DNA from: Chloroflexota bacterium
Lineage (GTDB): Bacteria; Chloroflexota; Limnocylindria; QHBO01
Length of the DNA: 64,000 nt
Direction of reading: 5' to 3'
Assembly: GCA_040902225.1 (NCBI GenBank)
Contig: JBBDXT010000004.1
Location: 320,376-384,375, forward strand
This document shows, one piece after another, positions 9,817 to 39,143 of this stretch. The notes under the pieces are model-generated. The model worked only from the letters and a program-made list of their open reading frames with translations, was not told where the DNA came from and made no database searches. Position 1 is the first letter of the stretch. Each line of letters starts with the position of its first letter. Position numbers and translations under genes: made by a program.

Positions 9817-9881
9817 TTCGCCAGCCACCGCGCTGACGGCACGATTCGACCGATTCACGCGCATGGGGTACCGTTCGCCCG

Positions 9882-22810: not shown

Positions 22811-25351
22811 ATGCGCCTGGCGACCCTCGCCTGGCGTGGCCTGACCGCGCGGCCCCTTCGAACCGCGCTGACCACCATCGGGGTGGCCCTTGGCGTCGCC
22901 CTGGTGTCGGGGACGCTCCTCGCCAACCAGGCGGCCAGCGAAGCGGTCGAGCGAGCCGCACAGGAGATCCTGGGGAAGGCCGAGCTGCGGGTCCGCGCCT
23001 TCGACCCGGGCGGGTTCGATCCGCGCACGGTGCAGCTGCTGCGCAAGATCTCCCCCGCCGTCCTCGCTGCGGCGCCCGTCGCCGAGCGGCGCCTGCTGAT
23101 AACGACGGCACCAGGGCCGGAGGAGCAGGTCTTCAACCTGCTGGTTCTCGGGGTCGATCCTGACGATGAGGCGCAGGTGCGCACGTATGACCTCGAGGCA
23201 GGAGCCTTCATCAGCACGACCCCGACTGATGCCGTCGTCAACGCCGCCTGGGCCGACGCTCACGACCTGGGCGTCGGGGACGAGCTCCGGCTCCACAGCG
23301 CCCGTGAGGGAACGCCGCATCTCCGGATCGTCGGGTTGCTGGGCGAGCTGGGCGTCGGAGCTCTCCAGCGAGGAAACGTGCTCGTCGTGAACCGGGCGAC
23401 GCTGAACGATGCCTTCGAGACGCCGGCGCCGGTGGCGTACGTCGACCTCGTCCTCTTCGAGGGCCGGGCGGAGGATGTCGAGACGGCGCTCAACCGCGAG
23501 ATGACGGAGCCGTTCATCGTCGAGACAGTGGCGGACGCGCAGCTTCAGCTCAGCCGGGCCCAGCAGGGCTTCGCCGGGATCGCCTTCCTGTTCGGCCTGG
23601 TCGCCCTGGTGGTGGGCTCGTTCCTGGTCGCCAACACCCTGGCCATGACGCTCAGCGAGCAGACCCGCGAGATCGGCCTCCTTCGGGCCGCCGGTCTGAC
23701 CGGCCGGCAGGTGATGGGTCTCTTCCTCCGTCAGGGCGCCGCGGTTGCCGTGATCGGCAGCGTGGTTGGCCTGGCGTTGGGCGTCGGGCTGGCGGCGCTG
23801 ATCATCGGCTTCCTGCGCAGCACTCGCGCGGTGCTGGTGACCGGACTGCCGATCAACCCGCTGGCGCTGCTCCTCGCCTTCGGAATGGGGATCGCCGTCA
23901 CGCTGGCGGCTTCAGCGTTCCCTGCCGCAGCCGCCACGCGCGTATCGCCAATGGATGCCCTGCGCCCCTCGCGACAGCCCGCTCGCACGCTGTGGGGCCG
24001 CCTGCGCTGGATCGTGGTCCTCGAGCTGGTGGTCGTGCTGCTGGGCGTCGCGGCCTACCCGGTCGATCGAGGCGACTTCGGGGTTCCCGGAGTCGCCCTT
24101 GCGCTCGCGATCCTCCTCGCAGGCACCGCTCTGACGGCCATCCTCCTCCAGCCGCTCAGCCGCGTGGTGGGCCGTCCTTTCGAATTGTTCTTCGGCGCCG
24201 AGGGGCTGCTCGGCCGCGCCAACCTGGGACGCGATCGAGCGCGGACCGGCCTGACCGTTGGAGCCCTGATCATCGCCCTCAGTGCCGTGGTCACGCTCGG
24301 CGTGGTCGCCAACAGTGCGGGCGCCACGGCTGATCGATGGGTGAACTCCGTCTTGCCCGGCGGGTACGCCCTGCGGTTCGGCCTGCCGGTCGACATTGAC
24401 ACGTTCCAGCCGGAGCTCGAGGCGACGACGGGGACCCTTGCGGTCACGCCGATCGCCGACTTCCCGGCCGTGGTGCTGAAGGGCGCCGAGCCGCCGCGGG
24501 AGGCATCGGTCGCCGGCATCGATCCCAGTGTCTTCTCAGCCACGGGATCGTTGATCTTCGTCAGTGGCACGCGCGAGGACGCCTTCGCTGCCCTCCGGGA
24601 TGGCGGAGCAATCCTCGTATCGGATCCGATCGCGCGGCGTGACAACCTGGGCGTCGGGTCGACCGTGCAGCTCGCCAAGCCCGGCGCCGACCCCCATTCC
24701 TTCACCGTGGCTGGGATCATCGCCTACAGCCTTCCGTCGCGGTCCGCCGAAGGAGCCCTCCTGATCAGCCTGGCCGACGCACGCGAGCTGTTTGGCGCCA
24801 ATTCAGCCGAGGTGTGGGCATTCGTGAAGCAGCCGGATGTGCCCGACGCGGCATTCCAGCAGGCGATCCAACAGCAGGCGGTCGCCTACGCGGCCGAGCT
24901 TCTTACCGCAGCCGGGCTCTCCAGCGACCTGGAGCGCTCGCTGGATCGGGTGATCGGCCTGTTCGACGTGCTGGCGCTGTTGGCGGTGGTGATCGCCGGG
25001 TTGGGGATCGTCAATACGCTGGGAGTGAGCGTGCTCGAGCGCGCGCGCGAGATCGCGATCCTGCGCTCGCACGGCATGACCACGGGGCAGGTGCAGGCCA
25101 TGGTGGTGGCGGAGGCGTCGATCATGGGCGCCATCGGCGGCATCGCGGCGGTCGTGACCGGAGTCTTGATGTCCGCTGCGGTCGTCGGAGGCACCGCCTC
25201 ACGAGACTTCGGGGCTGGGCTCGCCATCCCCTGGCTGCTGCTGATCAGCGTCGTGCTGCTGGGCACCGGGGTGGCGGCTCTGGCGGGCCTGTATCCCGCT
25301 CGCCTGGCCGCACGGATCCCGATCGTGCGCACGATCGCCCACCACGAATAG
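22811..25351 (+). CDS. FtsX-like ABC transporter permease with duplicated FtsX domains (MacB-like exporter permease)
   Basis: This 846-aa protein has two 4-TM FtsX modules, each preceded by a large extracytoplasmic domain, and sits immediately downstream of the ATPase. Confidence 0.8.
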   Translation: MRLATLAWRGLTARPLRTALTTIGVALGVALVSGTLLANQAASEAVERAAQEILGKAELRVRAFDPGGFDPRTVQLLRKISPAVLAAAPVAERRLLITTAPGPEEQVFNLLVLGVDPDDEAQVRTYDLEAGAFISTTPTDAVVNAAWADAHDLGVGDELRLHSAREGTPHLRIVGLLGELGVGALQRGNVLVVNRATLNDAFETPAPVAYVDLVLFEGRAEDVETALNREMTEPFIVETVADAQLQLSRAQQGFAGIAFLFGLVALVVGSFLVANTLAMTLSEQTREIGLLRAAGLTGRQVMGLFLRQGAAVAVIGSVVGLALGVGLAALIIGFLRSTRAVLVTGLPINPLALLLAFGMGIAVTLAASAFPAAAATRVSPMDALRPSRQPARTLWGRLRWIVVLELVVVLLGVAAYPVDRGDFGVPGVALALAILLAGTALTAILLQPLSRVVGRPFELFFGAEGLLGRANLGRDRARTGLTVGALIIALSAVVTLGVVANSAGATADRWVNSVLPGGYALRFGLPVDIDTFQPELEATTGTLAVTPIADFPAVVLKGAEPPREASVAGIDPSVFSATGSLIFVSGTREDAFAALRDGGAILVSDPIARRDNLGVGSTVQLAKPGADPHSFTVAGIIAYSLPSRSAEGALLISLADARELFGANSAEVWAFVKQPDVPDAAFQQAIQQQAVAYAAELLTAAGLSSDLERSLDRVIGLFDVLALLAVVIAGLGIVNTLGVSVLERAREIAILRSHGMTTGQVQAMVVAEASIMGAIGGIAAVVTGVLMSAAVVGGTASRDFGAGLAIPWLLLISVVLLGTGVAALAGLYPARLAARIPIVRTIAHHE

Positions 25352-25371
25352 GCGACGAGGAGGGTAGCCCG

Positions 25372-25800
25372 ATGGCTGGGCGGTTCTGGGAGGCCTCTCC
25401 GGGCAGGGTCTGGGTCGGTCGCCTCGAGACGGGGGACGACCTGGTCGAGCAGATCGAGACCGTGTGCGCCGAGTACGGCGTGCGTGCGGCCTGGGTGAGC
25501 GCCATCGGCGCCGTGAAGCGCGCAGCGTTCGCCTATTACGAGCAGAACGACCGGCGCTACCTCGAGCTGGAGAGCAGCGAGCACCACGAGATCATCGGCT
25601 TCATCGGCAACATCTCGATCCGAGATGACCAGCCGTTCCTGCATGCGCATGCGACCTTCGGGGACCGCAGCGGGGCGGCCGTCGGTGGCCATCTGCTGCG
25701 GGGATGCGAGGTCTTCGCGGCGGAGATCCAGATCCGCGAGATGACCGGTGTCGAGCTGATTCGGACGCCGGACGAGGTGAGCGGCCTGGCCCTCTGGTAG
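25372..25800 (+). CDS. PPC/DUF296 domain protein (PCC-type putative DNA-binding protein)
   Basis: An internal ATG (MAGRFWEASPGRVWVGRLETGDDLVEQIE) with a GAGGAGGG RBS is the likely start. The conserved GNISIRDDQPFLHAHATFGD region is typical of the PPC domain. Confidence 0.6.
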   Translation: MAGRFWEASPGRVWVGRLETGDDLVEQIETVCAEYGVRAAWVSAIGAVKRAAFAYYEQNDRRYLELESSEHHEIIGFIGNISIRDDQPFLHAHATFGDRSGAAVGGHLLRGCEVFAAEIQIREMTGVELIRTPDEVSGLALW

Positions 25801-25828
25801 GGCAGTCACCCGTACAATGGCGCCTCGC

Positions 25829-25869
25829 GCGCCCGTAGCTCAGCGGACAGAGCGGGTGGCTTCGGACCA
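25829..25869 (+). repeat. partial tRNA-Arg(TCG) 5' half (acceptor, D-arm and anticodon stem), the left boundary (attL-like) of the tandem island array
   Basis: The sequence GCGCCCGTAGCTCAGCGGACAGAGCGGGTGGCTTCGGACCA is identical to positions 1-41 of the intact tRNA at 37819. It is followed by island-type left-end sequence (CCGATGCGCTGTGGCA.GAGCGTG...TTTTCCGCTGTCTGG). Confidence 0.75.
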
Positions 25870-26465
25870 AGAAGGCCGATGCGCTGTGGCATGAGCGTGC
25901 GGCGGGGAGCGAACGAGGCCGGGTTTTCCGCTGTCTGGAAGCCCTTTGCCTCACCAAGCGACGCGTCAGGAATCCCCGGTACAGGAGGGGTAGCCATCAG
26001 GGCTGCGAGGAGTGAGCCAGAAACTGAACCAGCCGGCATCGGTTGCAAAAGCGCCAGAGCCGAACCCATCGAGCCGAAGCTCGGGATGCGCATCGACCCC
26101 TATCCCTATCGGGTAGGTAGGAACTCCTCGCGCGCGCATGAGCCTCAGCGTCTCGAACGCCTGGGCCAGATCGAGATAGCCGCAGCGTTCCTTGCCCACC
26201 GGCCGGATTGGTCGCGGGGATCGCGTCATGCACCGATCGCCGGGCGTGGACGCGGCGAGCTCTCGATACTTCGCTGGACGCCGGGGCGGTGACCGTCGCA
26301 GCGCGGTTGACACTGGTCCGGTAGCCATTCGTCGCCCGCAGGATCGGGTCAGTGCGATCCGGAGCAGTTGCGAATGGCGCGTATACTTCGCCCGACGTTC
26401 GTCCATCCGGCGTCCATCCGGCGGCTGACTACAACCAACGGTCGAGCAGAGAGAGATATACCGCG

Positions 26466-27287
26466 ATGATCAAGGCTTCCCGTCGACGGTGGCTCGCCAT
26501 GGGTCTGGTCCTGGCGTTGATTGCCGCCTTCCCTAACGCAGCGGTCGCCAGCCATTCCTGGGGCAGCTACCACTGGGCCCGGACCACCGCCACGTTCACG
26601 CTGCTGGTGGGCGATAACGTCTCGAATACTTGGGACCCGTACCTCGATGGGGCCATCGCCGACTGGACTGCCGCGCCGAGTGACCCGACGGTCGCCGACC
26701 TGCTCGACCTGGCAGAAACTGCTGGCGGGACCAACCCCCGGAACTGCCGGCCGACGGCAGGACGGATCGAGGCCTGCAGCGCCAAGTACGGCTACACCGG
26801 CTGGCTCGGCCTGGCACAGATCTGGGTCAGCGGCAGCCACATCACGCGGGCCATCACCAAGGTCAACGACACCTACTTCAACACCGCGACCTACAACACC
26901 CCGGCCTGGCGTCGCCTGGTGATGTGCCAGGAGATCGCGCACGACTTCGGGCTCACCCACCAGGACGAGGTCTTCAACAACCGGAACCTGGGGTCGTGCA
27001 TGGACTACACCAACGATCCCGATGGCGGCCCCGGCGGTTTCGTGAACGACGATCCGTCCAACGAGCACCCCAACACGCACGACTTCGAGCAGATCCAAAC
27101 GATCTACGGGGGCCACACCGACAGCACCTCGACAGTCGGGCAGGTTACGGCGGCTGGAGCGCCGGGGAACGCTCCCGCCTCGTGGGGCCAACTCGTCCGC
27201 GGCTCGCGCGCGGCAGGCGTCAGCCTATATGTGCTGGATCTCGGGAACGGCCAGCGGGTCTACACCCACGTCATCTGGGCGCGCTGA
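26466..27287 (+). CDS. secreted metzincin-like protein with a variant zinc motif QEIAHDFGLTH and a Met-turn-like SCMDY
   Basis: The ORF 26352..27287 has an internal ATG start (MIKASRRRWLAMGLVLALIAAFPNAAVA) with a signal peptide. The motif matches HExxHxxGxxH except Gln replaces the first His, and a downstream CMDY resembles a Met-turn. Confidence 0.5.
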   Translation: MIKASRRRWLAMGLVLALIAAFPNAAVASHSWGSYHWARTTATFTLLVGDNVSNTWDPYLDGAIADWTAAPSDPTVADLLDLAETAGGTNPRNCRPTAGRIEACSAKYGYTGWLGLAQIWVSGSHITRAITKVNDTYFNTATYNTPAWRRLVMCQEIAHDFGLTHQDEVFNNRNLGSCMDYTNDPDGGPGGFVNDDPSNEHPNTHDFEQIQTIYGGHTDSTSTVGQVTAAGAPGNAPASWGQLVRGSRAAGVSLYVLDLGNGQRVYTHVIWAR

Positions 27288-27463
27288 GCAGTCCGCACCA
27301 TCACCTAAATCAGGACCCATCTTGGCCATAACGTCGCCGAAGAGCTCACGCAGCCGCTCCACCGTGCGACACTGCATCGGCGAGCGCACGCCGGCCGGCG
27401 GCGGCACATGTTTCGCGTTCGTTTTTAAGAGTTGCCCGATGAAGCCCTCGGACGAGGTGACGG

Positions 27464-27754
27464 TCACCGGCACCACGATCTGCCGCCTCTGAGCTGACCC
27501 CTCGGGCACACTCGCCAAATTCCTCCCGCCTCGACCAAACGGGCCTGTTCGAGGGCGCGCACGCTGGTCCCGCGCAGTGGTCCCGGCAGGCGCCGGATGC
27601 GGCCCTGATCCCATACCCCTCCGGTCGGCCACCAGCCGACGTGGTAGGCGAATACCCGTCCCTCTGGCGATTCCTCAATCGTGCCGAACTCCGTTCGACA
27701 TGTCTCGTGGCCATCGCACAGCACGCGGGTCCGGCCCTTGTCGAGACGCGGCAT
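27464..27754 (-). CDS. hypothetical 96-aa protein translationally coupled to the integrase 3' end
   Basis: The start overlaps the integrase stop (TGATG). The protein MPRLDKGRTRVLCDGHETCRTEFGTIEESPEGRVFAYHVGWWPTGG has no recognisable family. The coding call rests on its position and the coupling. Confidence 0.3.
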   Translation of the reverse strand: MPRLDKGRTRVLCDGHETCRTEFGTIEESPEGRVFAYHVGWWPTGGVWDQGRIRRLPGPLRGTSVRALEQARLVEAGGIWRVCPRGQLRGGRSWCR

Positions 27755-28690
27755 CAGCGCAGGCTCAGCCGTCGAGCGGCGTCGAGTGCGCGACCGCTGG
27801 CCGCCGACCGCGCGTAGCGAGACAACATCTCGCGGCTGCGCCAGCCGGCCAGCACCATGAGGTCACCTTCCTGCCCGCCGCCGCCAACCAGGCGTGGGCG
27901 TAGGAGTGCCGGAACTGGTGAGCGTGCAGGCCGGGGATGCCCGCCAGCCGCCCACGGCGGCGCAGGAGCTGGGCGATCCGCGAATCGGTCATGCGCCCCT
28001 TCTCGCCGAGCCACAGCCACGGCAGGGCGGCCTTGGAGTGCTGGCGCCGCGCGCGCCGGATGTAGCGATCGACCGCCTTGACGGCTTCGGCATTGAGGAA
28101 GCTGATCCGCTCGCGCCGGCCCTTGCCCTCACGGATACGCACCACGCCACGATCCAGATCAACATCGTTGGTATCCGGATCGTCGGGCGTCCAGCGCAGG
28201 TTGGCAATCTCCGACAGACGGGTGCCGGTCGAGAGGAAGGTGCGGACGATGGCGGTGTCGCGGAGATCCTCAGAGCGTGGGCCGCGGCAGGCGGCCAGGA
28301 TGCGGTCCTGCTCCTCGTCGGTCAGGACCGGCGGGGCGTGCTCGGGCAGCTTTGGCTTGCGCATCCGCGCCATGGGTGACTCGCGGATCTCGCCCTCCTC
28401 GACCAACCAGGCGAAGAACGGGCGGATGCCCGAGTAGCGGTTGGCAGCGGTGGCCGGCCGCCAGCGGGCGAGCTGATCCTCGATGAACGCTTCGAGGTGC
28501 TCCCTGCGGATGCTGGCCACGTCGGTCGGCATGCCCTGGCCTTCGAGGAAGGCGGACAGCCGATCGAGGGATGCCAGGTAGGTGCGTTGGGTGGCAGGGG
28601 AGAGGTTCGCCGCACGGAGGTTGCGGGCGAAGCTGGTCACGTTGGCGGCCAGGTCGCCACGGGTTACGATAGCGGCGGTGGGAGTGGCCG
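27754..28690 (-). pseudogene. tyrosine recombinase/phage integrase, disrupted by a C-terminal frameshift with the ancestral ATG replaced by ACG
   Basis: The N-terminal SAM-like core-binding region (TRGDLAANVTSFARNL...TQRTYLASLDRLSAFL) and the catalytic box LHAHQFRHSYAHAWLAAAG are in one frame. The C-terminal GDLMVLAGWRSREMLSRYARS, with the catalytic Tyr, is in another frame (ORF 27754..28020). The shift occurs at a GC run near 27871-27885. The homologous remnant at 34371 starts ATG CGG CCG where this copy has ACG CAG CCG. Confidence 0.7.
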
Positions 28691-28805
28691 GCTGCGTGGC
28701 TTGGAGCTCCGCTGGCGGGATTCCGAAGATCGGCGCCAGATGCGCTGTCCGAGCGCTGTGGTCAAGGCCATTTCCACTTTTCCGCTCTGTTTGAGCGTGA
28801 AACGC

Positions 28806-28843
28806 GCGCCCGTAGCTCAGCGGACAGAGCGGGTGGCTTCGGA
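28806..28843 (+). repeat. partial tRNA-Arg 5' half copy (junction of elements A and B)
   Basis: GCGCCCGTAGCTCAGCGGACAGAGCGGGTGGCTTCGGA matches tRNA positions 1-38. The homologous roughly 170-bp element-end sequence precedes it and the element left-end motif follows it. Confidence 0.75.
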
Positions 28844-29240
28844 GCAGCAACCCCGATGCGCTGTGGCAAGAGCGTGGCTTGTCGGGCGAAAGAACTCGAG
28901 TTTTCCGCTGTCTGGGACGCTTCGTCGCTTGGTCGCCAGCGGGCTTGTGTGTCGGCAGCGGTCTACTAGGGCAACGCGAAAGGACCCGCGGCGAGAACCT
29001 GCGCCCGAATTGCGTTGAGCGCGGGCAGGTTCTCACGAACCGACGCTATGAAATCTGGTGGCTGGGTCGCGGCTGAGGCGACGGTTGGGCTGACACCTGA
29101 TGGCCCTAGTACGTCACGCCGATAGGACATTGGCTGGCCACCGCGGCCGGACAGAGAGAGCTGGACGCCACGCTGTACCTGTCGATTCACCGGCTCGGGC
29201 CGCTTCGAAGCGCAAGACCCCTACAAGAGCACTTGGCTGA

Positions 29241-30545
29241 CTACACTGCAGCCTCCCCCGCCAACTTCCCACTGTAGAGGGCTCGCCCGTCCCGCCGCCA
29301 CCATCCGGTGGTGGCAGTTGGCGGCCCGCCGTCGGCGGTGGCCTTGACGGCCAAGGCCAACTCAGTTCGCCGAGGCGGCCAGCTGCGTACATCGAAGCAG
29401 CCCGGCTCGTAGGTCCCACGTGGCTCACGCAGCAGTGTCATCCAGTCGTAGGCTCCGAAGGCCGCCCATGCGGTGACTGCCAAGATTGGAATTCCGTGCC
29501 CGTGGGCTGTCATTGCAGCCGACCATGCCTCTGACCACCAAGCGACCTGATCGTCCAAGGGGCCGGCGAGGGCGATCTCGGTCAGCGCCAATGGACGTCG
29601 GTATCGCTGCCAGGTCTCGCGCAACACGCGGGGCAGGCCGGTCACATCGTAGCCTTCGACACGTGCCATCTCGACGTCCGCATAGGCCAGACGCCCGTCG
29701 CCTCCATGACTGGATTCTGGGAATAGGTCCAGGCGGTGATCGAGATAACGGTCACTCGTGATGTAGTGATCGATGCCGAGGACATCGGGTGGGGCGGGCT
29801 CACTGCTGAGCTTGTCCAGGATCAGTCGATGAGCCGGGGAGGCCGCCAGATACCTCCACAATGGGTGCGATCGGTCGACAGCCCCGGTCACCAGGTCAAA
29901 CGTCAGCCAGCGGCGATGGTTGTCGAAGTCAACCGCGGCCTGGCATTCCGCGGTCCCGTAGGTGCGCCCCACGTCCTCGTTCACGATGATGCGGGCTCCG
30001 GGGGTGACTGCCCTGATGGCGCGGGCCGCCTCGGTTAGGGCCTCCGCCTGCGAGAGGATTAGATGGCCGAAAATCGCGTGGTCGCGTGCGTACGGCGGCC
30101 ACCAGCCATACAGGCCGCCGAATCGAGCGGTTGTGAGCGCCTCGTTTATTGGGAGGTAGGTGCGGACTGCAGGAAAGCGGCGCGCAACCGTGGCCGCATA
30201 GTCCGCGAAGGCCGCAGCCCAGCCCGGTTGCCGCGGATCGGCTCCTCGCGGTCCGAAGCCATGATGGAGGAGGCCGACAACAGGCTCGACCCCGAAGGCA
30301 TTCATGCCGCCGATCCGCTCTTCTGCCCACTCCCAATCCGTGGCCTCCCTCGCATTGGAGGACCTTCCCCAGAGGACGGGATAGCGGACGGCGCGCGCGC
30401 CGAGGCTGGCCAGCCGCCCAAGGTCCGCAAGGCGCCGGTCATGCCCCGTGAGCGACAACTGATCGCGGATTCCGTTGCCCACCTTCAGGAATGAACACTC
30501 GGGACCTGCCCAGACTTCGGGCCCGCCCGTTGCTAGGCGGCCCAT
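29241..30545 (-). CDS. putative clan GH-A glycoside hydrolase (GH1-like TIM barrel)
   Basis: This 434-aa protein has an IIVNEDVG motif resembling the GH1 NEP acid/base and an LALTEIALAG motif resembling the ITENG nucleophile, at positions comparable to GH1. Its stop overlaps glf. Confidence 0.4.
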   Translation of the reverse strand: MGRLATGGPEVWAGPECSFLKVGNGIRDQLSLTGHDRRLADLGRLASLGARAVRYPVLWGRSSNAREATDWEWAEERIGGMNAFGVEPVVGLLHHGFGPRGADPRQPGWAAAFADYAATVARRFPAVRTYLPINEALTTARFGGLYGWWPPYARDHAIFGHLILSQAEALTEAARAIRAVTPGARIIVNEDVGRTYGTAECQAAVDFDNHRRWLTFDLVTGAVDRSHPLWRYLAASPAHRLILDKLSSEPAPPDVLGIDHYITSDRYLDHRLDLFPESSHGGDGRLAYADVEMARVEGYDVTGLPRVLRETWQRYRRPLALTEIALAGPLDDQVAWWSEAWSAAMTAHGHGIPILAVTAWAAFGAYDWMTLLREPRGTYEPGCFDVRSWPPRRTELALAVKATADGGPPTATTGWWRRDGRALYSGKLAGEAAV

Positions 30546-31672
30546 TCGCGAGACTCGGCGATCCTGCCGGCCGTGACCAGTGCCTGCCCGACGACCTGGT
30601 CCATGTTGTAGTACTTGTAGGTCCCGAGCCGCCCAGCGAAGTGCACCTGGGGGGCCTCGGCAGCGAGAGCCAGGTACCTCTGATATAAGGCTCGGTTCTC
30701 GTGTCGGGGGATCGGATAGAAAGGCTCCCCGGAAGATTCGGGGAACTCACGGACGATGGTAGTCACGTCATGGGATTGGCCCGTGAAGTGTCGGAACTCG
30801 CTGACACGCGTAAATGGCACGGCCTCATCCGGGAAGTTCACTGTCCCCGTCGGCTGATGCCGCTCTTCATCCAATGTCTCGAACTCAAACCGCAGGGAGC
30901 GGTATGGCAGCGGTCCGAATATCTGATCGAAATAGGCATCGATCGGCCCCGTGTACACAAGATGATCAAAGTCAAGCACGTGCCGAACATCGTGGAAGTC
31001 GACCCCGGTCCGCACCTCGATGCGCGGATGGGCGAGCATGCGCTCGACCATTTGGGTATAGCCGTGCGCGGGCATTGCCTGAAAACGATCTGTGAAATAG
31101 CGATCGTCCAGGTTGGTCCGGGCGGGGACACGGGCAGTTACCGACGCGTCCAGTTCGCTGGGGTCGAGCCCCCATTGCTTTCTCGTGTATCCCTGGAAAA
31201 AGAGCTCGTAAAGCTCGCGGCCGACCGAGCCGACCACAACCTCCTCGGACGTTCGGGGCGTCCCAACGGCCTCTGCGCGTTCGGCGTAGTACCGTGCGGT
31301 GCTCTCGTCATCGCCAAGGCCGACCGCGAACAGCTCGTTCAAGGTCGTCCGATTGATTGGGATCGGGACGAGCCGACCGCGCACGCAGGCGAGGACCCTG
31401 TGCTCGTACGGCCTCCAACCGGTGAACTGCGATAGGTACCCGAAGATGTCCGCCGAGTTCGTGTGGAAGATGTGAGGGCCATAGCGGTGGATCAGTACCC
31501 CTGCTTCGTCCAACTCGTCATACGTGTTGCCTCCGATATGCGCCCGACGGTCCATCACTAGGACTCGCCTACCGTGTTGGCTGGCCAGCTGCTCCGCGAT
31601 GACACTTCCGGACAACCCCGCCCCGACGACGACTACGTCGTAGCCCATCTCACAAAGCCTCCGCGCCGACAA
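30533..31672 (-). CDS. glf: UDP-galactopyranose mutase
   Basis: The N-terminal FAD-binding segment YDVVVVGAGLSGSVIAEQLA and the conserved HRYGPHIFHTN region are present, and the 379-aa length fits. Confidence 0.9.
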   Translation of the reverse strand: MSARRLCEMGYDVVVVGAGLSGSVIAEQLASQHGRRVLVMDRRAHIGGNTYDELDEAGVLIHRYGPHIFHTNSADIFGYLSQFTGWRPYEHRVLACVRGRLVPIPINRTTLNELFAVGLGDDESTARYYAERAEAVGTPRTSEEVVVGSVGRELYELFFQGYTRKQWGLDPSELDASVTARVPARTNLDDRYFTDRFQAMPAHGYTQMVERMLAHPRIEVRTGVDFHDVRHVLDFDHLVYTGPIDAYFDQIFGPLPYRSLRFEFETLDEERHQPTGTVNFPDEAVPFTRVSEFRHFTGQSHDVTTIVREFPESSGEPFYPIPRHENRALYQRYLALAAEAPQVHFAGRLGTYKYYNMDQVVGQALVTAGRIAESREWAA

Positions 31673-33077
31673 CGAGCGGAGCGGCCTGCAGCTCCTTAGC
31701 TGTGGACAGCCGCATGGGGACCGGCACGTGCACCAGGTGCGATGCGGAGCGCGCTGTCTCCGATTGCGAGCCGTTTGTCACCGCCTGTTCCACCAAGATG
31801 GCCATCGCGTCCCAGGTGCGGTCCCACGAGCCCATAGCGAGGAATTGGTCCGCTTGCCGTTGCGTCTCCGTCCCGTCCGCGCGCTGGGACTCCTCGACTG
31901 CCTCAATCGTCTCGTCGATCGAGTCCGCGATTCGTACCAGGCCACGTCGTCCGTAGGGCTCGATTACGTCCCGGATGGATGTGGATACGACCGGCAGACC
32001 GGCTGCGAGGTATTCGGGCGTCTTCGTTGGGCTGATGAAGGCGGTCGCCTCATTCCGTGCGAAGGGCATCCAGCCCACGTTCCAATGGGCGAGGTAGGAG
32101 GGCAGTTCGCCATAGGTCTTCCGCCCCAGCTGATGGATGTTCCGACGCGCTGGAATGGCAGCGGCAGCGATCTTGGCGAGTGGCCCGAGCAGGACGATCT
32201 GCCAATCCTGCCGGCGGGCTGCGACGCCGTCGATCAGGCCCAGGTCTAGTCGCTCGTCGATCACCCCGGCATAGCCCAGTCTCGGCATGGCGATGCTTCG
32301 CTGGTCGGCAGGGTCCGGCCGAGGCAGCCGGGCCGCGGCGAAATGTCGAACATCAATACTGCTTGGAAAGCAGTAGCTCGCCTGGTGCCGAGCGGCCAGT
32401 CGCTGATGGAGCCGCACTCCGCCGCTGAATACGAGATGCGCTCGGCCGAGGAGCTCATCCTCGAGGGACAGGAGGCACTCCGACGCCCCTCGGAAGCCGG
32501 CCAGGTAGTCCATGCAGTCATAGACCACGACGGAACTGGCAACATGCCTCGTCCAGGGCAGCGCCATCGGCGTGTAGTACCAGAGGATCGGAGCGTCGAT
32601 CTGCTCTGTTCCGATCAGGTCGTCGAGCAGGTCGGCAAGGAGCGCATTCGATTCCGGCGCCTCCATGCCCGTTGGGACGACAGGCGTCATGACACCGACG
32701 CCCTCGCGGTCAGTTCTCTGAATATGCGGGCGGGCACCTGGCTCGAAGCGCGCCTCCTCGATGAAAAAGACGCGCTTGCTCCGTGCGGCGCGAGCCATGA
32801 GGTGGTTGGGGCGCTGGTACACGAAGTCCCAGCGCAGATGAGACAGGCAGATAAGGTCTTCGGTCACGTCTTCTCCCCTCTTCGCAGTCTGGATTCCGGC
32901 GCGACGGCCGGCCACGGCGGGATGATCCTCGACCATCTGCTGCATCCCGCAAACAATCGGCGGGAGAAACATTTCAGGCTGATCGCAGCGCCCAGCCATG
33001 GGGTCGGCTGGGTGGAATTGGGAGGCCCACGAATCCACCCGAACGTGGGAGCGCCCGGTTCGCGTGACCTGCAACAC
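31650..33077 (-). CDS. glycosyltransferase family 4 (GT-B, RfaG-like)
   Basis: The C-terminal region EYLAAGLPVVSTSIRDVIEPYG is typical of a GT4 EX7E region, and ICLSHLRWDFVYQRPNHLM is typical of GT4 N-termini. The true start is probably an internal ATG around 32945, and the gene overlaps the glf start. Confidence 0.7.
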   Translation of the reverse strand: MLQVTRTGRSHVRVDSWASQFHPADPMAGRCDQPEMFLPPIVCGMQQMVEDHPAVAGRRAGIQTAKRGEDVTEDLICLSHLRWDFVYQRPNHLMARAARSKRVFFIEEARFEPGARPHIQRTDREGVGVMTPVVPTGMEAPESNALLADLLDDLIGTEQIDAPILWYYTPMALPWTRHVASSVVVYDCMDYLAGFRGASECLLSLEDELLGRAHLVFSGGVRLHQRLAARHQASYCFPSSIDVRHFAAARLPRPDPADQRSIAMPRLGYAGVIDERLDLGLIDGVAARRQDWQIVLLGPLAKIAAAAIPARRNIHQLGRKTYGELPSYLAHWNVGWMPFARNEATAFISPTKTPEYLAAGLPVVSTSIRDVIEPYGRRGLVRIADSIDETIEAVEESQRADGTETQRQADQFLAMGSWDRTWDAMAILVEQAVTNGSQSETARSASHLVHVPVPMRLSTAKELQAAPLVVGAEAL

Positions 33078-33130
33078 TCTTCTCAGTCGAACATCGGCCT
33101 CAGCGACAAGGCGTTCTAGGCGAGGGTCAT

Positions 33131-34009
33131 ATGAAGGTAGGAATCATCGTTCCCCAGGGCTGGACCGGCGAATACACCGGCTGGGACGCCGGCCGCGCGT
33201 GGGATCGGACTACGGCGGTGGCCCGGCAGGCCGAAGCGCTCGGATTCGAGTCGCTGTGGCTTTTCGACCATTTCCACACGGTCCCAAAACCCCGGCAGGA
33301 CATCACCTTCGAGTCGTTCACCACGCTGGCCGGCCTGGCGACCACCACAAAGCGCGCGCGGCTTGGCCAACTGGTCAATTGCGCGACCTACCGCAATCCA
33401 GCGCTAGTGGCGAAGATGATTTCGACGTTGGACACAATGTCAGGCGGTCGTATGGAACTCGGCCTGGGCGCGGGCTGGAAAGAGGACGAGTTTCGGGCGT
33501 ATGGGTACGGCTTCCCTTCGCTGGCTGAGCGCCATGCCCGGCTGGAAGATGCTCTGATCATTGCCAACCGGATGTTTCACGACGAGGAGGCCGTCTACAG
33601 GGGCAGCACCGCATCAGTCAACGGCGCGATCAATGTTCCGAAGCCGCAGCAAAGGCCCCGAATCCCCATCGTCGTGGGGGGCAATGGCCGGAACGTGACG
33701 TGGCGGTTGGCAGCGCGCCACGCCGATGAACTCAATCTTGATAACGTTCCCGTCCACGAAATCGAGGATGCCCTGGCGGTCGTGGCCGAGCGCTGCGCGG
33801 AAGTCGGCCGCGATGCTGCGACCCTCCCGGTCTCGGTCCATATCTGGTGGGAAACGCTGGTGAATCAGGACCCGGTCGAGCTACTGAGAGGATATCGCGA
33901 GGCGGGTGTCAGCCGGGTGATGGCCTTGGTCCGCGAGTCAGCTACCACCGACGATGCTCTCGTGCGATTGCGGGAGCAGGCCGGCGATGCAGGCGCTGAG
34001 TTTGATTGA
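33131..34009 (+). CDS. LLM class F420-dependent oxidoreductase (luciferase-like monooxygenase fold)
   Basis: The sequence MKVGIIVPQGW...FESLWLFDHFHTVP...LGLGAGWKEDEF is the typical LLM/F420-dependent family pattern. Confidence 0.8.
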   Translation: MKVGIIVPQGWTGEYTGWDAGRAWDRTTAVARQAEALGFESLWLFDHFHTVPKPRQDITFESFTTLAGLATTTKRARLGQLVNCATYRNPALVAKMISTLDTMSGGRMELGLGAGWKEDEFRAYGYGFPSLAERHARLEDALIIANRMFHDEEAVYRGSTASVNGAINVPKPQQRPRIPIVVGGNGRNVTWRLAARHADELNLDNVPVHEIEDALAVVAERCAEVGRDAATLPVSVHIWWETLVNQDPVELLRGYREAGVSRVMALVRESATTDDALVRLREQAGDAGAEFD

Positions 34010-34183
34010 GGCCGCGACGAACTAGAGAGACGCCGAACCTGATACAGCCGCATGCGCCTTGCCCGGGTCTGTACTCGTAACTCGCCACGCCGATTCGCGT
34101 CTTCGGGCTCGCTTAGCGTTCGCGGATTGTCGGCCGTCGCCGGCAGTACCTTGTTGTCCAGCGGCGAGGACCCGACGGCACCC

Positions 34184-34456
34184 TCAGAATCGCCGTCGAT
34201 GCTGCTTCGCGTCCACGATCCAAGCCAGTGATCGGGCCCTGACGAGCGCTGGGACGAACTTGACAAGAGGGCGTCCGATACTGGAAGACCGAGGTGGCGG
34301 GGGACAGGTTGGCCGCACGATGTGACGGGCGAAACTAACAACGTTGGCGGCCAGGTCGCCGCGGGTTAGGATAGTGGCGGTGGGATTAGCCGGCCGCATG
34401 GCTTGGAGCTCCGCTGGTGGGTTTCCGAAAATCAGCGCCAGGTTTACGTTTTCCAA
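34184..34456 (-). pseudogene. integrase N-terminal remnant of about 25 codons, then unrelated sequence
   Basis: The ORF carries MRPANPTATILTRGDLAANVVSFARH, homologous to the element-A integrase N-terminus, then diverges. The rest of the integrase has been deleted. Confidence 0.6.
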
Positions 34457-34508
34457 CCGCTGTGGTCAAGGCACGTTCCACTTTTCCGCTCTGTTTGAGC
34501 GTGAAACG

Positions 34509-34550
34509 CGCGCCCGTAGCTCAGCGGACAGAGCGGGTGGCTTCGGACCA
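34509..34550 (+). repeat. partial tRNA-Arg 5' half copy (junction of elements B and C)
   Basis: GCGCGCCCGTAGCTCAGCGGACAGAGCGGGTGGCTTCGGACCA is identical to the tRNA 5' half, and the element left-end motif follows it. Confidence 0.75.
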
Positions 34551-37500
34551 GCTACCCCGATGCGCTGTGGCACGAGCGTGGAACCCGTACCAAATGTGCC
34601 CTAGTTATCCGCTGTCGAGAAGCCCTCTCGCTTCGTCAGGACTGCCGCCGTGACAGACGGATTGCGCAGCTTGGCGTAGCGGCTCAGGTGGGAATCCACG
34701 AGGTGGAGCCTGGCACTGAGGCCAAGAGGGCCAGGGCAACCGCCTCGTCAGTCGTCATGCGGCGGCCCTCGGCCCACGCCGAGTCGAGAGCGGTCGCATC
34801 GAGCGCGTTGCGGAGCTGGCCAATCGCGGCGTCGTATTCGGCCCGTTCGTCCGAGAGCATCACTATTTCCGCGACCTCGCGGATCGCCTCCGCCGCACCC
34901 AACAGGCGGGCCGCACGTACGAAGTCGTGCTTTGCTGTCGCGAGGAACCCGAAGCACTCCAGCTGGTGGGCGATCGCGCCGCGGTTGCCCGCGTGCTGCC
35001 AGCCGCGCAGCGTTTCCCGGTACAGCTCCTCGGCCTCGTCGATCTCCCCGCCACGGCGCAGCGTGTGAGCGAGTTCGCTGCGCGTCCTGAGAACGGACCT
35101 GCGGTCGCCCATCTCCTCGTAACCCGCGATCGCCCTGCCCAGCCACTCTCGTGCCTCGGCCAACCGACCGGTGAAACCGCTCTGATCGCCGCGACTCCAT
35201 GCGATGAAGGCGATCGCACGCGGATTCCGGGAGCGATCGGCCGCCTCGGACGCCCTGAGTAGCCGGGCTTCGGCGCCCGCCATGTCACCATCGTCTGTCA
35301 TCTGAGAATAGGCGAGGCTTGCCTCGATCGTGGCAAGCGCTAACCAGTCGTGCCTCGACTCGGCCAGCCGGACCATCTCCTCTTCCAACTCGCGCGCCTC
35401 GCTCAACCGCCCTGAGAAGGACCTCGTCGTCGCCAGCGCAGCGAGCGCCTCTGACAGCGCCTCGTCGTCTTCGGCTCGGCGAGCCAGCGCCACGGCTTCC
35501 TCGGCCCATCGCCCGCCTGCGGCGTACTCCGCACCCCACGACGATGCATTCGCGGCGGAGGCGAACACCCTCGCGACTAGGATCGTTCGCTCGCGAGCGG
35601 CGGATGGCGCAGCAGGCGGCAGCCTCAATGCGAGCTCGGCCGCCTTGGCCATCCACTCGATGGCCTCGGAGCCAATCGATCGGGATCTCCAGTAGGCGGC
35701 CAGCGCCACCGACAGGCGCAGCGCCGCTTCTGGGTCCGCCTCGAATGACCACTCCAGCGCGGTGCGCAGGTTCTCCGCCTCGGAGTCCAGGCGGCTCAGC
35801 CATGCCACCATGTCCGGGCCCCGGAGTGCAGGCCCGGCCTCGCGTGCGAGGTCCAGGTAGAACGCAAGGTGACGGCCGCGGATCGCCAACACCTCGCCAG
35901 CGCTTGCGAGCCGGTCGCCGGCGTACTGCCGAATCGTCTCGAGGAGCCGATAGCGCGTGGGTCCACCCTGGTCGGCGACAACCAGCGAGCGGTCGACCAG
36001 GCGGCCGAGGCCGTCGAGCGTCTCGAGCAGCGTGTTCGCCTCGTCGTGACGCGCGCCGCCATCGTCTTCGTGCAGCCCCGCCACGGCCGCCGCCGCCTCC
36101 AACGTGCACCCCCCCGCGAAGACTGAGAGGCGCCGCAGGAACTGGCGGTCCGTCTCGGTCAGCAGGTCCCAGCTCCAGTCGACGAGCGCCTGCAGCGTCT
36201 GCTGGCGGGGTACGGCGCTGCGGCGGCCGCCGGTCAGGAGCCGGAACCGGTCGCCGAGCCCCCGCGCGATCTCCTGCGCCGAAAGATGAGTGACCCGCGC
36301 TGCGGCGAGCTCGATCGCGAGCGGGATGCCGTCAAGGCGACGGCAGATCTCGACCACTGCGGGCGCGTTGGCAGGCGTCAGCAAAAAGGACGAGAGCACC
36401 GCGCTCGCTCGATCGACGAACAGGCGGACCGCGTCAGCTGCGGCCGTCTCCTCGAACCAGCCCGCCGCCGGCTCGTCATGATCCTCGCCCTCGCCGATGG
36501 CGCCAGGTACGACCAGCGACGGGACCTGGAAGACCGTCTCCCCGGACACTCCGAGCGCCTCACGGCTCGACGCAAGCACGGCCAACGATGGACAGCTGGC
36601 GAGCAGGCGATCGACCAGATCCGCGGCCGCGCCGATGACATGCTCGCAGTTGTCGAGGAGCAGCACGAGGGACTTCGAGCGGAGAAAATCAACCAGCGTG
36701 TCGAGGACCGCCCGTCCGGGCTCGCCAGGCACTCCGAGCGCCCGGGCGACCTCGCTGACGATGAGATCGGGGCTGGGGACCGGGGCCAGCTCGACCAGCC
36801 AGACGCCGTCCGCCCGGCGCCCCAGGAGCTCAGCCGCAAGCTGGAGCATGAGTCTCGTTTTGCCCGTGCCGCCGGTTCCGATCAGGGTCACCAGGCGATG
36901 CGCCTCCGCCAGGGCGGCAAGATCCGCGAGCTCCCGTTCGCGGCCGACGAAGGAGGTCAGCTGCGCGGGGATATTGGTCAGCTCCACCCCGACGGACCGA
37001 AGCCCCGGAAACTCGGCTCGCAGGCCGGGGCCGATGAGCTGATGCAGTTGTGCCGGCGCATCGAAGTCTTTCAGGCGAAACTCTCCGAGCTCACGGAGCG
37101 CCAGCTCCTCGGGCAGCCGATCCCCCAGGACCGCAGCCATCGCCTGCGAGACCAGCACCTGGCCGCCATGGCCGGCTGCCGCGATGCGGGCGGCGCGGTG
37201 GACCTCGAGCCCAACGTAACCGCCGTCTCGGCGCGTGGCTTCGCCCACGTGGAGACCCATCCGCACGCGGAGATCGGCGCCGGGCGGCCATTCCGCGCCG
37301 GTCAGCGCGCGCTGGCCCTCCGCGGCGGCGCGCAACGCGTGGAGCGGGCTGCCGAACGCCACGAAGAACGAGTCGCCCTCGGTGCCAACCTCGAATCCAG
37401 CGTGGCGGGCAAACGCCTCGCGCAGGATCGACCGATGGCGCTCGAGAAGCGCCTCGTAGGCATCGGGCAGGCTGCCGGCGAGGCGCGTCGAGCCCTCGAT

Positions 37501-37860
37501 GTCGGTGAACAGGAACGCGACCGTTCCTGTCGGCGCCTCGGGCGGTCGTGGCTTCCGGCGCTGGTGAGGCGACTTGGCTGGCATGCGACCGATGGTACCG
37601 CTGCCCACAGTCGACCGAAACGGGCTTGGACCCAGCTCGGCCACGGCCCATGAGGTTTGGCGGCCAGGTCGCCGCGGGTTAGGATAGGAGCGGTGGGAGT
37701 GGCCGCCTGCGTGGCTTAGCTCCGCTGGCGGGATTCCGAAGATCGGCGCCAAACACGCTCTCCGAGCGCTGTGGTCAAGGCTATTTCCACTTTTCCGCTC
37801 TGTTTGAGCGTGAAATGTGCGCCCGTAGCTCAGCGGACAGAGCGGGTGGCTTCGGACCAT
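34551..37860. mobile_element. decayed integrative element C (single cargo gene: cyclase/NB-ARC/TPR STAND NTPase; integrase reduced to a roughly 20-codon remnant); its tRNA 5' half completes the intact tRNA-Arg
   Basis: The right end (37645-37818) is homologous to the ends of elements A and B and contains remnant integrase N-terminal codons, now read through into the cargo ORF. It is bounded on the left by the tRNA half copy at 34509 and on the right by the intact tRNA. Confidence 0.65.
34684..37584 (-). CDS. class III adenylate/guanylate cyclase domain fused to an NB-ARC/AAA+ (STAND) ATPase and C-terminal TPR-like repeats
   Basis: The true start is the ATG near 37584 (MPAKSPHQRR...). The cyclase motifs FLFTDIEGST, GDSFFVAF, RMGLHVGE and VHRAARI are present, followed by a P-loop LIGTGGTGKTRLM and Walker B LLLDNCEH, then about 500 aa of helical repeats. 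No C-terminal HTH is evident. Confidence 0.8.
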   Translation of the reverse strand: MPAKSPHQRRKPRPPEAPTGTVAFLFTDIEGSTRLAGSLPDAYEALLERHRSILREAFARHAGFEVGTEGDSFFVAFGSPLHALRAAAEGQRALTGAEWPPGADLRVRMGLHVGEATRRDGGYVGLEVHRAARIAAAGHGGQVLVSQAMAAVLGDRLPEELALRELGEFRLKDFDAPAQLHQLIGPGLRAEFPGLRSVGVELTNIPAQLTSFVGRERELADLAALAEAHRLVTLIGTGGTGKTRLMLQLAAELLGRRADGVWLVELAPVPSPDLIVSEVARALGVPGEPGRAVLDTLVDFLRSKSLVLLLDNCEHVIGAAADLVDRLLASCPSLAVLASSREALGVSGETVFQVPSLVVPGAIGEGEDHDEPAAGWFEETAAADAVRLFVDRASAVLSSFLLTPANAPAVVEICRRLDGIPLAIELAAARVTHLSAQEIARGLGDRFRLLTGGRRSAVPRQQTLQALVDWSWDLLTETDRQFLRRLSVFAGGCTLEAAAAVAGLHEDDGGARHDEANTLLETLDGLGRLVDRSLVVADQGGPTRYRLLETIRQYAGDRLASAGEVLAIRGRHLAFYLDLAREAGPALRGPDMVAWLSRLDSEAENLRTALEWSFEADPEAALRLSVALAAYWRSRSIGSEAIEWMAKAAELALRLPPAAPSAARERTILVARVFASAANASSWGAEYAAGGRWAEEAVALARRAEDDEALSEALAALATTRSFSGRLSEARELEEEMVRLAESRHDWLALATIEASLAYSQMTDDGDMAGAEARLLRASEAADRSRNPRAIAFIAWSRGDQSGFTGRLAEAREWLGRAIAGYEEMGDRRSVLRTRSELAHTLRRGGEIDEAEELYRETLRGWQHAGNRGAIAHQLECFGFLATAKHDFVRAARLLGAAEAIREVAEIVMLSDERAEYDAAIGQLRNALDATALDSAWAEGRRMTTDEAVALALLASVPGSTSWIPT

Positions 37861-37894
37861 CAGGTCGCGGGTTCGATTCCTGCCGGGCGCGCCA
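37819..37894 (+). tRNA. tRNA-Arg (anticodon TCG), intact
   Basis: The acceptor stem GCGCCCG/CGGGCGC, D arm GCTC-AGCGGACA-GAGC, anticodon stem GGTGG/CCATC with loop CTTCGGA (U33, anticodon UCG, G37), T arm GCGGG-TTCGATT-CCTGC, discriminator G and encoded CCA are all identifiable. Confidence 0.8.
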
Positions 37895-37940
37895 ACCCTC
37901 TATCAGCCGTATCGTGCGTTGGCGCCCTAGACTCCGCGAA

Positions 37941-39143
37941 GTGACCGCCCAACGCGCCACCGAGGCGGAGCCGGAGCACCCGGCCGGCATCGGTCTGGCG
38001 CTGCTCGCCTTCGCCGTCTACTGGTTCACCGGGCCGCCAGGAGCAGGCGGGGACCAGTTCGTGCCGCTGGCTGACGCATTCCTCCACGGTCGGCTGTCGA
38101 TCCCGGTCGATCGGCCCTGGATGGAGCTGGTGCCGGTCCCCGACGGCAGCGGCGCGCAGTACTCGCCTTTCCCGCCAGTGCCCGCCCTGACCCTGATGCC
38201 GGTCATCGCGGCGCTCGGCCTCTTCCCGGGAGTGGGGGAGCTCTCCGGCAACGTAATGTCCACGCTGGTCGGTGCGGTCAATGTCGCGCTGGCGTGGTAC
38301 CTGCTGGCGGCGATCGGGGTGATGCTCGGACCACGCCTGGTGATCGCCATCGGCTTTGCCTTCACCACCCACTGGTGGGTCGCCGGCATGGGCGGCACCC
38401 ATCACTACGCCGCGGTGGTGGCCGCCTGCTTCCTGCTGCTGGCGCTCAATCTCGGGGTGCGCCGCCGTCTGCCGGCGCTGGTCGGGCTGACCCTGGGCCT
38501 GGCGGCCGCAAGCCGTCTGCCGACCGGGCTGGCGCTGCCCCTGCTGCTCGCCTTCTTCGCCGACCGATGGCGCCCGTCCGGGGCGCACGCGGAGCTGCTG
38601 CTCGGACTGGCCGTGCCCGCGGTGCTGTTCGCCGCGTACAACGTCGCGCGCTTCGGATCTCCGTTCGACTCGGGCTACGTCCATATCCCGTCGGGCGACG
38701 CCGGCCTGCTGGTGACCGATGAGCCGTGGTTCAGGCACGGCCTCGTCTCACCGCTCTACATCCCGCGCCACCTGTACGCCATCTTCATCCAGGGGCCGGC
38801 CGTCGTCGGCGACTTCCCGTACCTCAAGCCCTACTCGACCGGACTGTCGCTGACCCTATCGGCGCCGTTCCTGTTCTGGGCGGTCAAGGCCCGCGGGCCG
38901 ATGGTTGCGGTCACCTGGCTGTCGGTTGGCCTCGTGCTGCTGCCGGACGTGATGCACGGGTCATGGGGCTTCGCGCAGCTCGGCTATCGGTTCATCCTGG
39001 ATGCCGTTCCGCTGCTGCTCCTGCTGCTCGGCTGGGCCTACCGAGAGCGCGCGTCGTGGAGTCTTGCCGCCGCGGTCGCCGTGGGCGTGCTGGTGCACAC
39101 CTGGGGGATCCTGGTGATGAACCTGTACCGGTTCGCCGCCTGA
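37941..39143 (+). CDS. polytopic membrane protein, putative GT-C-type glycosyltransferase (PMT/ArnT-like)
   Basis: The GTG start lies just after the tRNA. There are more than 10 predicted TM helices and an N-terminal conserved loop (FLHGRLSIPVDRPWMELVP...YSPFPPVPALTLMP) reminiscent of GT-C family 39/83/87-like enzymes. Confidence 0.4.
   Translation: MTAQRATEAEPEHPAGIGLALLAFAVYWFTGPPGAGGDQFVPLADAFLHGRLSIPVDRPWMELVPVPDGSGAQYSPFPPVPALTLMPVIAALGLFPGVGELSGNVMSTLVGAVNVALAWYLLAAIGVMLGPRLVIAIGFAFTTHWWVAGMGGTHHYAAVVAACFLLLALNLGVRRRLPALVGLTLGLAAASRLPTGLALPLLLAFFADRWRPSGAHAELLLGLAVPAVLFAAYNVARFGSPFDSGYVHIPSGDAGLLVTDEPWFRHGLVSPLYIPRHLYAIFIQGPAVVGDFPYLKPYSTGLSLTLSAPFLFWAVKARGPMVAVTWLSVGLVLLPDVMHGSWGFAQLGYRFILDAVPLLLLLLGWAYRERASWSLAAAVAVGVLVHTWGILVMNLYRFAA

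Follow-up and report, generated by a model that had tools for sequence, protein, structure and literature searches.

A cyclase/STAND/TPR signalling gene as the only cargo of a putative mini-element at a tRNA-Arg gene in a Chloroflexota bacterium

The 64,000-nucleotide (nt) stretch of DNA analysed here (the window) comes from a Chloroflexota bacterium (GenBank assembly GCA_040902225.1, contig JBBDXT010000004.1, positions 320,376 to 384,375 of the forward strand). On its minus strand, at 34684–37584, it carries a gene for a protein of 966 amino acids (aa) in which a class III cyclase domain at the N terminus is followed by an NB-ARC-like STAND ATPase and then by TPR repeats over about 390 aa; the C terminus has no helix-turn-helix (HTH) domain. 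We judge it moderately likely that the product of this gene is a ligand-gated nucleotidyl cyclase from the cyclase/STAND/TPR signalling family and that the gene resides on a horizontally spreading, trans-mobilisable mini-element. In class III cyclases, the active sites span the interface of a dimer; in STAND proteins, the sensor domain keeps the molecule closed until a ligand binds and nucleotide is exchanged, after which the protein oligomerises. On these grounds, STAND oligomerisation that switches on the cyclase is the most economical model. The C-terminal TPR array would keep the NB-ARC-like ATPase closed and ADP bound, binding of a ligand to this sensor would lead to nucleotide exchange and oligomerisation, and oligomerisation would bring the N-terminal cyclase domains into the head-to-tail dimers required for class III catalysis. 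The cyclic nucleotide produced would then be read by receptors encoded elsewhere in the genome, for example CRP-type regulators. The ligand, the oligomerisation step, the product, and the downstream receptors are parts of this scheme that we infer from the observed architecture, motifs, and selection.

The domain architecture, which an earlier reading of the DNA letters alone (the original prediction) had proposed, is real, as Pfam, a structural model, and a fold search agree and all of the motifs then quoted are present. Pfam placed Guanylate_cyc at aa 18–172, AAA_22 and further STAND P-loop models at aa 205–342, and TPR_12 in the C-terminal part. An AlphaFold2 model built from 50 homologues (mean predicted local distance difference test score [pLDDT] of 86, predicted template modelling score [pTM] of 0.70) contained an alpha/beta cyclase domain at residues 20–185, a nucleotide-binding oligomerisation domain (NOD) at 216–560, and paired helices at 565–953. 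The best whole-chain match of this model in a Foldseek search against the PDB was a STAND-TPR protein (6mfv, E = 1.9e-12). The helical repeats, first put at about 500 aa, thus span about 390 aa, and the chain ends in TPR helices at residue 953. The proposed lack of a C-terminal LuxR-type HTH was borne out, with no Pfam match to GerE/LuxR HTH models in the protein or in its 120 best homologues.

The cyclase homology domain (aa 18–172; 37069–37533, minus strand) scored 42.3 bits against PF00211 Guanylate_cyc (gathering score, 21.9; E = 8e-11), and its fold matched the mycobacterial adenylyl cyclases Ma1120 and Rv1900c with TM scores of about 0.9 in the search against the PDB. Comparison by phmmer gave the same two proteins (Ma1120, 4wp3, 1e-21; Rv1900c, 4.6e-13), and the top NCBIfam match was the LipJ model, which describes the cyclase part of LipJ/Rv1900c. 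Catalytic residues were assigned from alignments to Ma1120 (4wp3) and to Pseudomonas aeruginosa CyaB. D28 and D71 occupy the metal-binding Asp positions and R133 the transition-state Arg position, with His129 at the transition-state Asn position, where it aligns with the Asn of CyaB. The position of the ATP-specifying Lys holds Gly67 (by alignment to Ma1120) and that of the specifying Asp holds Gly122 (by alignment to both Ma1120 and CyaB). The original prediction had proposed the catalytic Asp, Asn, and Arg as a check on activity; Asp and Arg are in place, whereas His stands in for Asn. Among 118 full-length relatives, conservation reaches 99–100% at D28, D71, R108, and R133; 81% have His and 19% Asn at position 129, and the specificity positions vary (G, K, D, or S at 67; D, G, or S at 122). 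Rv1900c likewise lacks the canonical Asn, with His at that position, yet is an active adenylyl cyclase. Judged from its residues, the domain is probably an active enzyme and not a clear pseudo-enzyme. Its nucleotide product is not predictable from sequence because the specificity pair is Gly67/Gly122, both off the canonical Lys/Asp; neither the Lys/Asp pair typical of ATP nor a Glu/Cys-type pair typical of GTP is present. Cyclic AMP is probably the product, an assignment made uncertain by the Gly/Gly pair and by His in place of the catalytic Asn.

The STAND module (aa ~205–565; 35890–36972, minus strand) carries a Walker A motif (GTGGTGKTR, 236–244), a Walker B motif (LLLLDNCEH, 307–315), an SRE sensor (340–342), and a GIPLA motif (419–423), and residues G236–R244, D311–H315, S340–E342, and G419–A423 are invariant among 50 aligned homologues. 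A nucleotide-binding domain (NBD), a helical domain, and a winged-helix domain are all visible in the AlphaFold2 model, and the NOD fold matched the NB-ARC modules of Apaf-1, CED-4, and the plant NLR protein NRC with E values of 1e-7 to 1e-6. The Pfam NB-ARC model itself scored 13.9 bits, under its gathering score of 23.5, and AAA_22 was the only ATPase model above threshold. In relatives, a winged-helix model (PF25872, HTH_77) falls between the ATPase and the TPR region; this winged helix belongs to the NOD and does not represent a DNA-binding output at the C terminus.

The TPR-like helical repeat sensor (aa ~566–953; 34726–35889, minus strand) makes up the C-terminal part of the protein. Among close relatives, its first half (aa 566–760; 35305–35889) is the most divergent segment, at 67–73% identity compared with about 90% for the cyclase domain and NBD. 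In the relatives at 85–87% identity, dN and dS (nonsynonymous and synonymous divergence) are both raised in this half, with a dS of 0.5 versus 0.2–0.35, and the raised dS suggests that the segment may have been replaced by recombination. We computed dN/dS for each domain against five close relatives and found the lowest values for the cyclase domain (0.12–0.23), a value of about 0.23 for the NBD, and values of 0.3–0.6 for the TPR region. Every domain is under purifying selection. A hypervariable C-terminal sensor was considered and ruled out, as the level of conservation changes little along the protein and dN/dS nowhere reaches 1.

The 966-aa reading frame begins at an ATG at 37584 and ends with a stop codon at 34684–34686. 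The mechanical open reading frame (ORF) is longer, running from 37860 to 34684 on the minus strand (1058 aa), and its first ~90 codons are the reverse complement of an intact tRNA-Arg(TCG) gene (37819–37894, plus strand) and of the region upstream of that tRNA. ATG 37584 is the plausible start, and the true start may lie 8 codons further upstream, at GTG 37608, which aligns with the ATG start 'MGSGTISRMPAK' of relatives. Remnant integrase codons had been read in the 5' region of this ORF, and these dissolve on comparison: 37585–37860 consists of an element arm of about 165 nt and the reverse complement of the tRNA, and the resemblance between two such mechanical ORF extensions comes from the arm and tRNA half that they share. 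A gene-specific 5' leader (37585–37656, minus strand) accompanies the gene where the tRNA-Arg arms are absent, as in the related locus L002. A scan of 34300–38000 for promoters and terminators gave scores no higher than those of shuffled sequence.

Two copies of a tRNA-Arg 5' half flank the gene, with no other coding-like ORF between them, and the view that it forms the only cargo of an island element, proposed from the sequence, was strengthened by comparison with other loci. A 38-nt string from the 5' half of tRNA-Arg occurs in four exact copies, at 25829, 28806, 34510, and 37819, where chance would predict none. Copies 2, 3, and 4 share about 165 nt of sequence on their left (the right arm of the preceding element), and copies 1, 2, and 3 share about 75 nt on their right (the left arm of the following element). 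The first copy (25829–25869, plus strand) has its own distinct upstream sequence and abuts the core PCC/MacB genes, which identifies it as the native 5' half of the tRNA, displaced from its gene. The intact tRNA takes its 5' 41 nt from the element and its 3' part from the native gene; an Rfam scan of 25000–39000 found this tRNA only.

Three tandem elements, A, B, and C, thus separate the two native parts of the tRNA. The cyclase gene alone occupies element C (34551–37818), which is flanked by the exact 38-nt tRNA halves at 34510 and 37819 and contains no recombinase. The tRNA half at the junction of B and C (34510–34550, plus strand) was identified by repeat comparison. The left arm of C (34551–34683) shares its first ~75 nt with the left arms at 28850–28922 and 25870–25945, and its right arm (37657–37818) is homologous to 28642–28805 in element A, from the integrase start to the tRNA half, and to 34344–34509 in element B. 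The cyclase gene and its own 72-nt leader hold exactly the position in C that an integrase gene holds in A. Element A (25870–28849) contains an unidentified ORF and a tyrosine integrase (27765–28640, minus strand); the right arm and a tRNA 5' half (28806–28843) come next. The integrase starts at GTG 28640, directly after the arm, and is read as frameshifted because its catalytic-Tyr segment 'LAGWRSREMLSRY' lies in another frame; it has 291 aa compared with 313–318 aa in intact relatives. Element B (28850–34509) retains only about 50 nt of integrase 5' sequence and encodes a GH1-like protein, UDP-galactopyranose mutase (Glf), a glycosyltransferase, and a luciferase-like oxidoreductase; it looks like a cell-surface glycan cassette. 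Its GC content is 0.64, compared with about 0.69.

Relative to the intact tRNA, the elements are on the 5' side, and what they duplicate is its 5' half with about 165 nt of the sequence upstream. Elements usually donate the 3' part instead, and this reversed polarity implies that the arriving element supplies the promoter region of the tRNA. The same 5'-half polarity was found at a locus with a single element (L098, 8815–11479).

Comparison with other genomes argues for horizontal movement of the unit. Two Chloroflexota metagenome-assembled genomes (L098 and L099; contigs of 244–533 kb) share the core flanks of the window on both sides (PDH E1, DUF4097, alpha-amylase, and amino-acid permease on one; PCC, MacB, ABC, CAP, and tRNA-His on the other). 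The interval from tRNA-Arg to the displaced half holds nothing but a 2.6-kb element (9001–11269) with an intact integrase and a Kelch-repeat beta-propeller protein. In L087, the cyclase unit stands alone between tRNA-Arg and the PCC-MacB core, and the unit is 97.4% identical to that of the window at the nucleotide level compared with about 75% for the core. Synonymous divergence between the window and L087 is far lower in the cyclase gene (dS of 0.043) than in the adjacent core gene MacB (dS of 0.81), a difference that indicates horizontal transfer. L003 holds a tandem pair of cyclase units (96% and 87% identity to that of the window), each with arms and a tRNA half; L001 and L086 contain a version of the unit at 85%, and L002 has an 85% copy without such repeats. 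In L004, perfect 51-nt repeats derived from the 3' part of tRNA-Gln(CTG), at 45–95 and 3315–3365, enclose the same gene (96.5% nucleotide identity) and no other, at a different attachment site with conventional polarity. This locus is a second kind of single-gene mini-element, at another tRNA. An origin of its repeat as an artefact of circular assembly was ruled out, since the repeat is internal to both contig ends.

The integrase is found beside the same arm and tRNA-Arg in element A, L098, and L100, and integrase relatives accompany AAA_25, Replic_Relax, and small ORFs beside tRNA-Arg, company which suggests that the parents of the array elements may have been small plasmid-like integrative elements. 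Element C is, on these comparisons of sequence, best read as a 3.3-kb, integrase-less, horizontally spreading, trans-mobilisable mini-element whose cargo is a signalling gene and not a recognisable defence system. This reading rests on the sole gene, the flanking tRNA halves, arms shared with an integrase-bearing family, variable occupancy, and a similarity between units that exceeds that of the core. Several public contigs with this gene (L004, L005, and others) measure 2.8–3.5 kb, close to the size of the element, and such short contigs are consistent with assemblies that break at the repeated arms.

The family to which the protein belongs is very large and mostly engaged in ordinary signalling, and this protein is a further member of it. 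At E ≤ 0.001, 167,504 representatives at 50% identity were found, 63,853 of them at E ≤ 1e-30, and nearly all of the best 150 matches are end to end, at about 900–1,000 aa. Three paralogues (55–59% identity; contigs of 0.8–2.2 Mb) lie amid housekeeping genes, with two-component systems, tRNA synthetases, thymidine kinase, and shikimate dehydrogenase among their neighbours, and one of them is 540 nt from a gene for a CRP-family regulator. We also surveyed 98 neighbours of 13 more distant homologues (36–52% identity) from Actinomycetota, Eremiobacterota, Chloroflexota, and Alphaproteobacteria. These neighbours were metabolic or housekeeping genes (hydrolases, TetR regulators, aminotransferases, peroxiredoxins, and similar), and PADLOC matches among them were generic only. 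The suggested association of homologues with defence islands was therefore not seen in these neighbourhoods, which hold metabolic, signalling, and housekeeping genes. The alternative that had been raised, of homologues in conserved core loci with a C-terminal HTH, fits in part: the housekeeping and core contexts were found, and the HTH was absent from the homologues. In 2.9 million viral contigs searched with the protein profile, the family is almost absent (one uncultivated virus genome carries relatives at its contig ends), and the arm sequence had no match there.

Several observations weigh against a ligand-gated cyclase on a mobile mini-element and temper our preference for it. No receptor for cyclic nucleoside monophosphates (cNMPs) was detected in the element or in the 64-kb window, where phmmer found nothing of the CRP type, and no element of the window contains an intact integrase. 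The Asn-to-His replacement together with the Gly/Gly pair could mean low or unusual activity. The activation mechanism would follow only by analogy with other STAND proteins and from the dimer requirement of class III cyclases. Finally, repeated capture by mini-elements, divergent tandem copies such as those in L003, and a fast-evolving first TPR half are also seen in conflict systems.

This last point bears on the antiphage role that the original prediction had put forward, in which an Avs-type sensor follows Pycsar-like logic. Here, the protein would be an antiphage or conflict sensor in a single polypeptide, whose TPR region recognises a phage protein, whose STAND module oligomerises, and whose burst of cNMP arrests growth through host receptors. 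The layout of an N-terminal enzyme, an NB-ARC-like NOD, and a repeat sensor is that of Avs and NLR proteins. The gene is also the sole cargo of horizontally moving mini-elements at two different tRNAs, occurs as divergent tandem copies in L003, has its most divergent segment in the first TPR stretch, where raised dS suggests recombination, and has non-canonical specificity residues that leave the product open. However, PADLOC returned only a marginal P-loop match for the protein (mad8, 5.9e-5) and no Avs, PycC, or other defence model, and no linked effector lies in the element or the 64-kb window. Other cargo at this hotspot is not defence related (glycan genes, the Kelch protein, and replication genes), with no coherent defence system detected by PADLOC among the genes of elements A and B. 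The neighbourhoods of paralogues and distant homologues are of a housekeeping and signalling kind, dN/dS is below 1 throughout, and the family is almost absent from viral contigs. In addition, the term "cyclase" is not mentioned in the main text of a 2026 survey paper on STAND proteins. The tests that we ran thus gave no positive support for an antiphage role, which we regard as unlikely. A related proposal, that the unit is a self-contained, horizontally spreading, NLR-like conflict cassette in which a cyclase of unusual specificity (the Gly/Gly pocket) signals infection or intrusion through resident cNMP receptors, seems to us similarly unlikely. Were it true, the cassette would be the first antiviral STAND with a cyclase effector, carried by integrase-less mini-elements that target tRNA genes.

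A third possibility is that the cyclase domain is a pseudo-enzyme that serves only as a dimerisation or adaptor module, with signalling by protein-protein interaction. His129 in place of the catalytic Asn, Gly67 and Gly122 at the Lys and Asp specificity positions, and variation at the Asn and specificity positions across the family would all be in keeping with such a loss of function. On the other hand, the 118 relatives show little or no change at the two metal-binding Asp residues and the transition-state Arg, and no part of the protein is more constrained than the cyclase domain (dN/dS of 0.12–0.23); we consider a pseudo-enzyme improbable. Least credible of all is an ordinary, immobile core gene beside a tRNA, surrounded by repeats from neighbouring elements: host-like GC content and third-position GC (GC3) and the lack of an integrase of its own would suit it, but the genome comparisons already contradict it through the native tRNA half with its own upstream sequence beyond the gene and next to PCC, the gene-free L098 locus with both core flanks, the similarity of the L087 unit (97% versus 75% for the core; dS of 0.04 versus 0.81), the two units in L003, and the tRNA-Gln repeats around the gene in L004.

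A ligand-gated signalling cyclase thus remains the reading that we prefer, and its interest lies in both the family and the element. We know of no biochemical study of the HTH-less cyclase/STAND/TPR family, which comprises tens of thousands of clusters and for which a simple model, STAND oligomerisation switching on a dimer-dependent cyclase, can be offered. That a signalling gene should be the sole cargo of integrase-less mini-elements, at two tRNAs, is noteworthy, as is a tRNA-Arg element family that replaces the 5' half of its target tRNA and not the usual 3' part. Neither point about the mobile context alters the understanding of STAND or cyclase biology.

Elsewhere in the window, the gene at 60918–61736 (plus strand), described at first as a second stand-alone class III cyclase, does contain a cyclase-homology domain, which is paralogous to the cyclase domain of the STAND protein (phmmer, 1.5e-34). 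It is not stand-alone, since a DUF6582 domain is fused N-terminal to the divergent cyclase-homology domain, and the latter scored 17.9 bits in Pfam, under the threshold of 21.9. This domain retains the metal-binding Asp residues and the His/Arg pattern. More cyclic-nucleotide genes lie near the loci of relatives (L001, 3684–7106, minus strand; L002, 6378–7232; L085, 1856–6361) and encode a 1140-aa cyclase/AAA_16 protein, a small cyclase, a GAF-cyclase, and an HTH-GAF-GGDEF-EAL protein. These genes suggest that cNMP signalling has expanded across the lineage.

Among known systems, the Mycobacterium tuberculosis proteins Rv0386, Rv1358, and Rv2488c have a cyclase, a STAND ATPase, and TPRs in the same order. 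They carry a LuxR/GerE HTH, whereas this protein and its 120 best homologues do not, which means that its output cannot be direct control of transcription. Rv0386 has the non-canonical substrate-specifying residues Gln/Asn, unlike the Gly/Gly pair seen here. For the cyclase domain, Ma1120 (Mycobacterium avium, 4wp3) and Rv1900c/LipJ (1ybt) are nearest in sequence and fold, and the metal-binding Asp residues and the Arg are kept. Ma1120 has the canonical Lys/Asp, in contrast to Gly/Gly with His at the Asn position in this protein, and both Ma1120 and Rv1900c lack the STAND-TPR regulatory module. That module resembles the NOD and TPR sensor of PH0952 (6mfv) and of MalT/AfsR-like switches, a likeness which suggests, by analogy, autoinhibition that a ligand relieves before the protein oligomerises; in this protein the effector is an enzyme, the cyclase, and not a DNA-binding domain, and sequence identity is about 13%.

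Similarity to defence systems is one of layout. As in Avs, an N-terminal effector, a NOD, and a repeat sensor are joined in one polypeptide, and as in Pycsar, a class III-like cyclase would generate the signal. Unlike either, the protein has no membership in their hidden Markov models, no cNMP-binding effector partner, and no defence neighbourhood. PycC-type pyrimidine cyclases have bulky specificity residues (PMC11224242). The cyclase domain described here groups with purine cyclases in sequence and fold searches; a search for a PycC-type cyclase with an adjacent cNMP-binding effector (PycTM or PycTIR) gave no model match, and the element holds a single gene. The closest parallel for element C is offered by CIME-type, att-flanked elements, which likewise have att-type direct repeats, arms in common with integrase-bearing relatives, a tandem array at a tRNA gene, and no recombinase. 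Compared with these, element C is extremely small, with one gene in 3.3 kb, and its family differs from the usual elements in donating the 5' half of the tRNA and its upstream sequence, not the 3' part.

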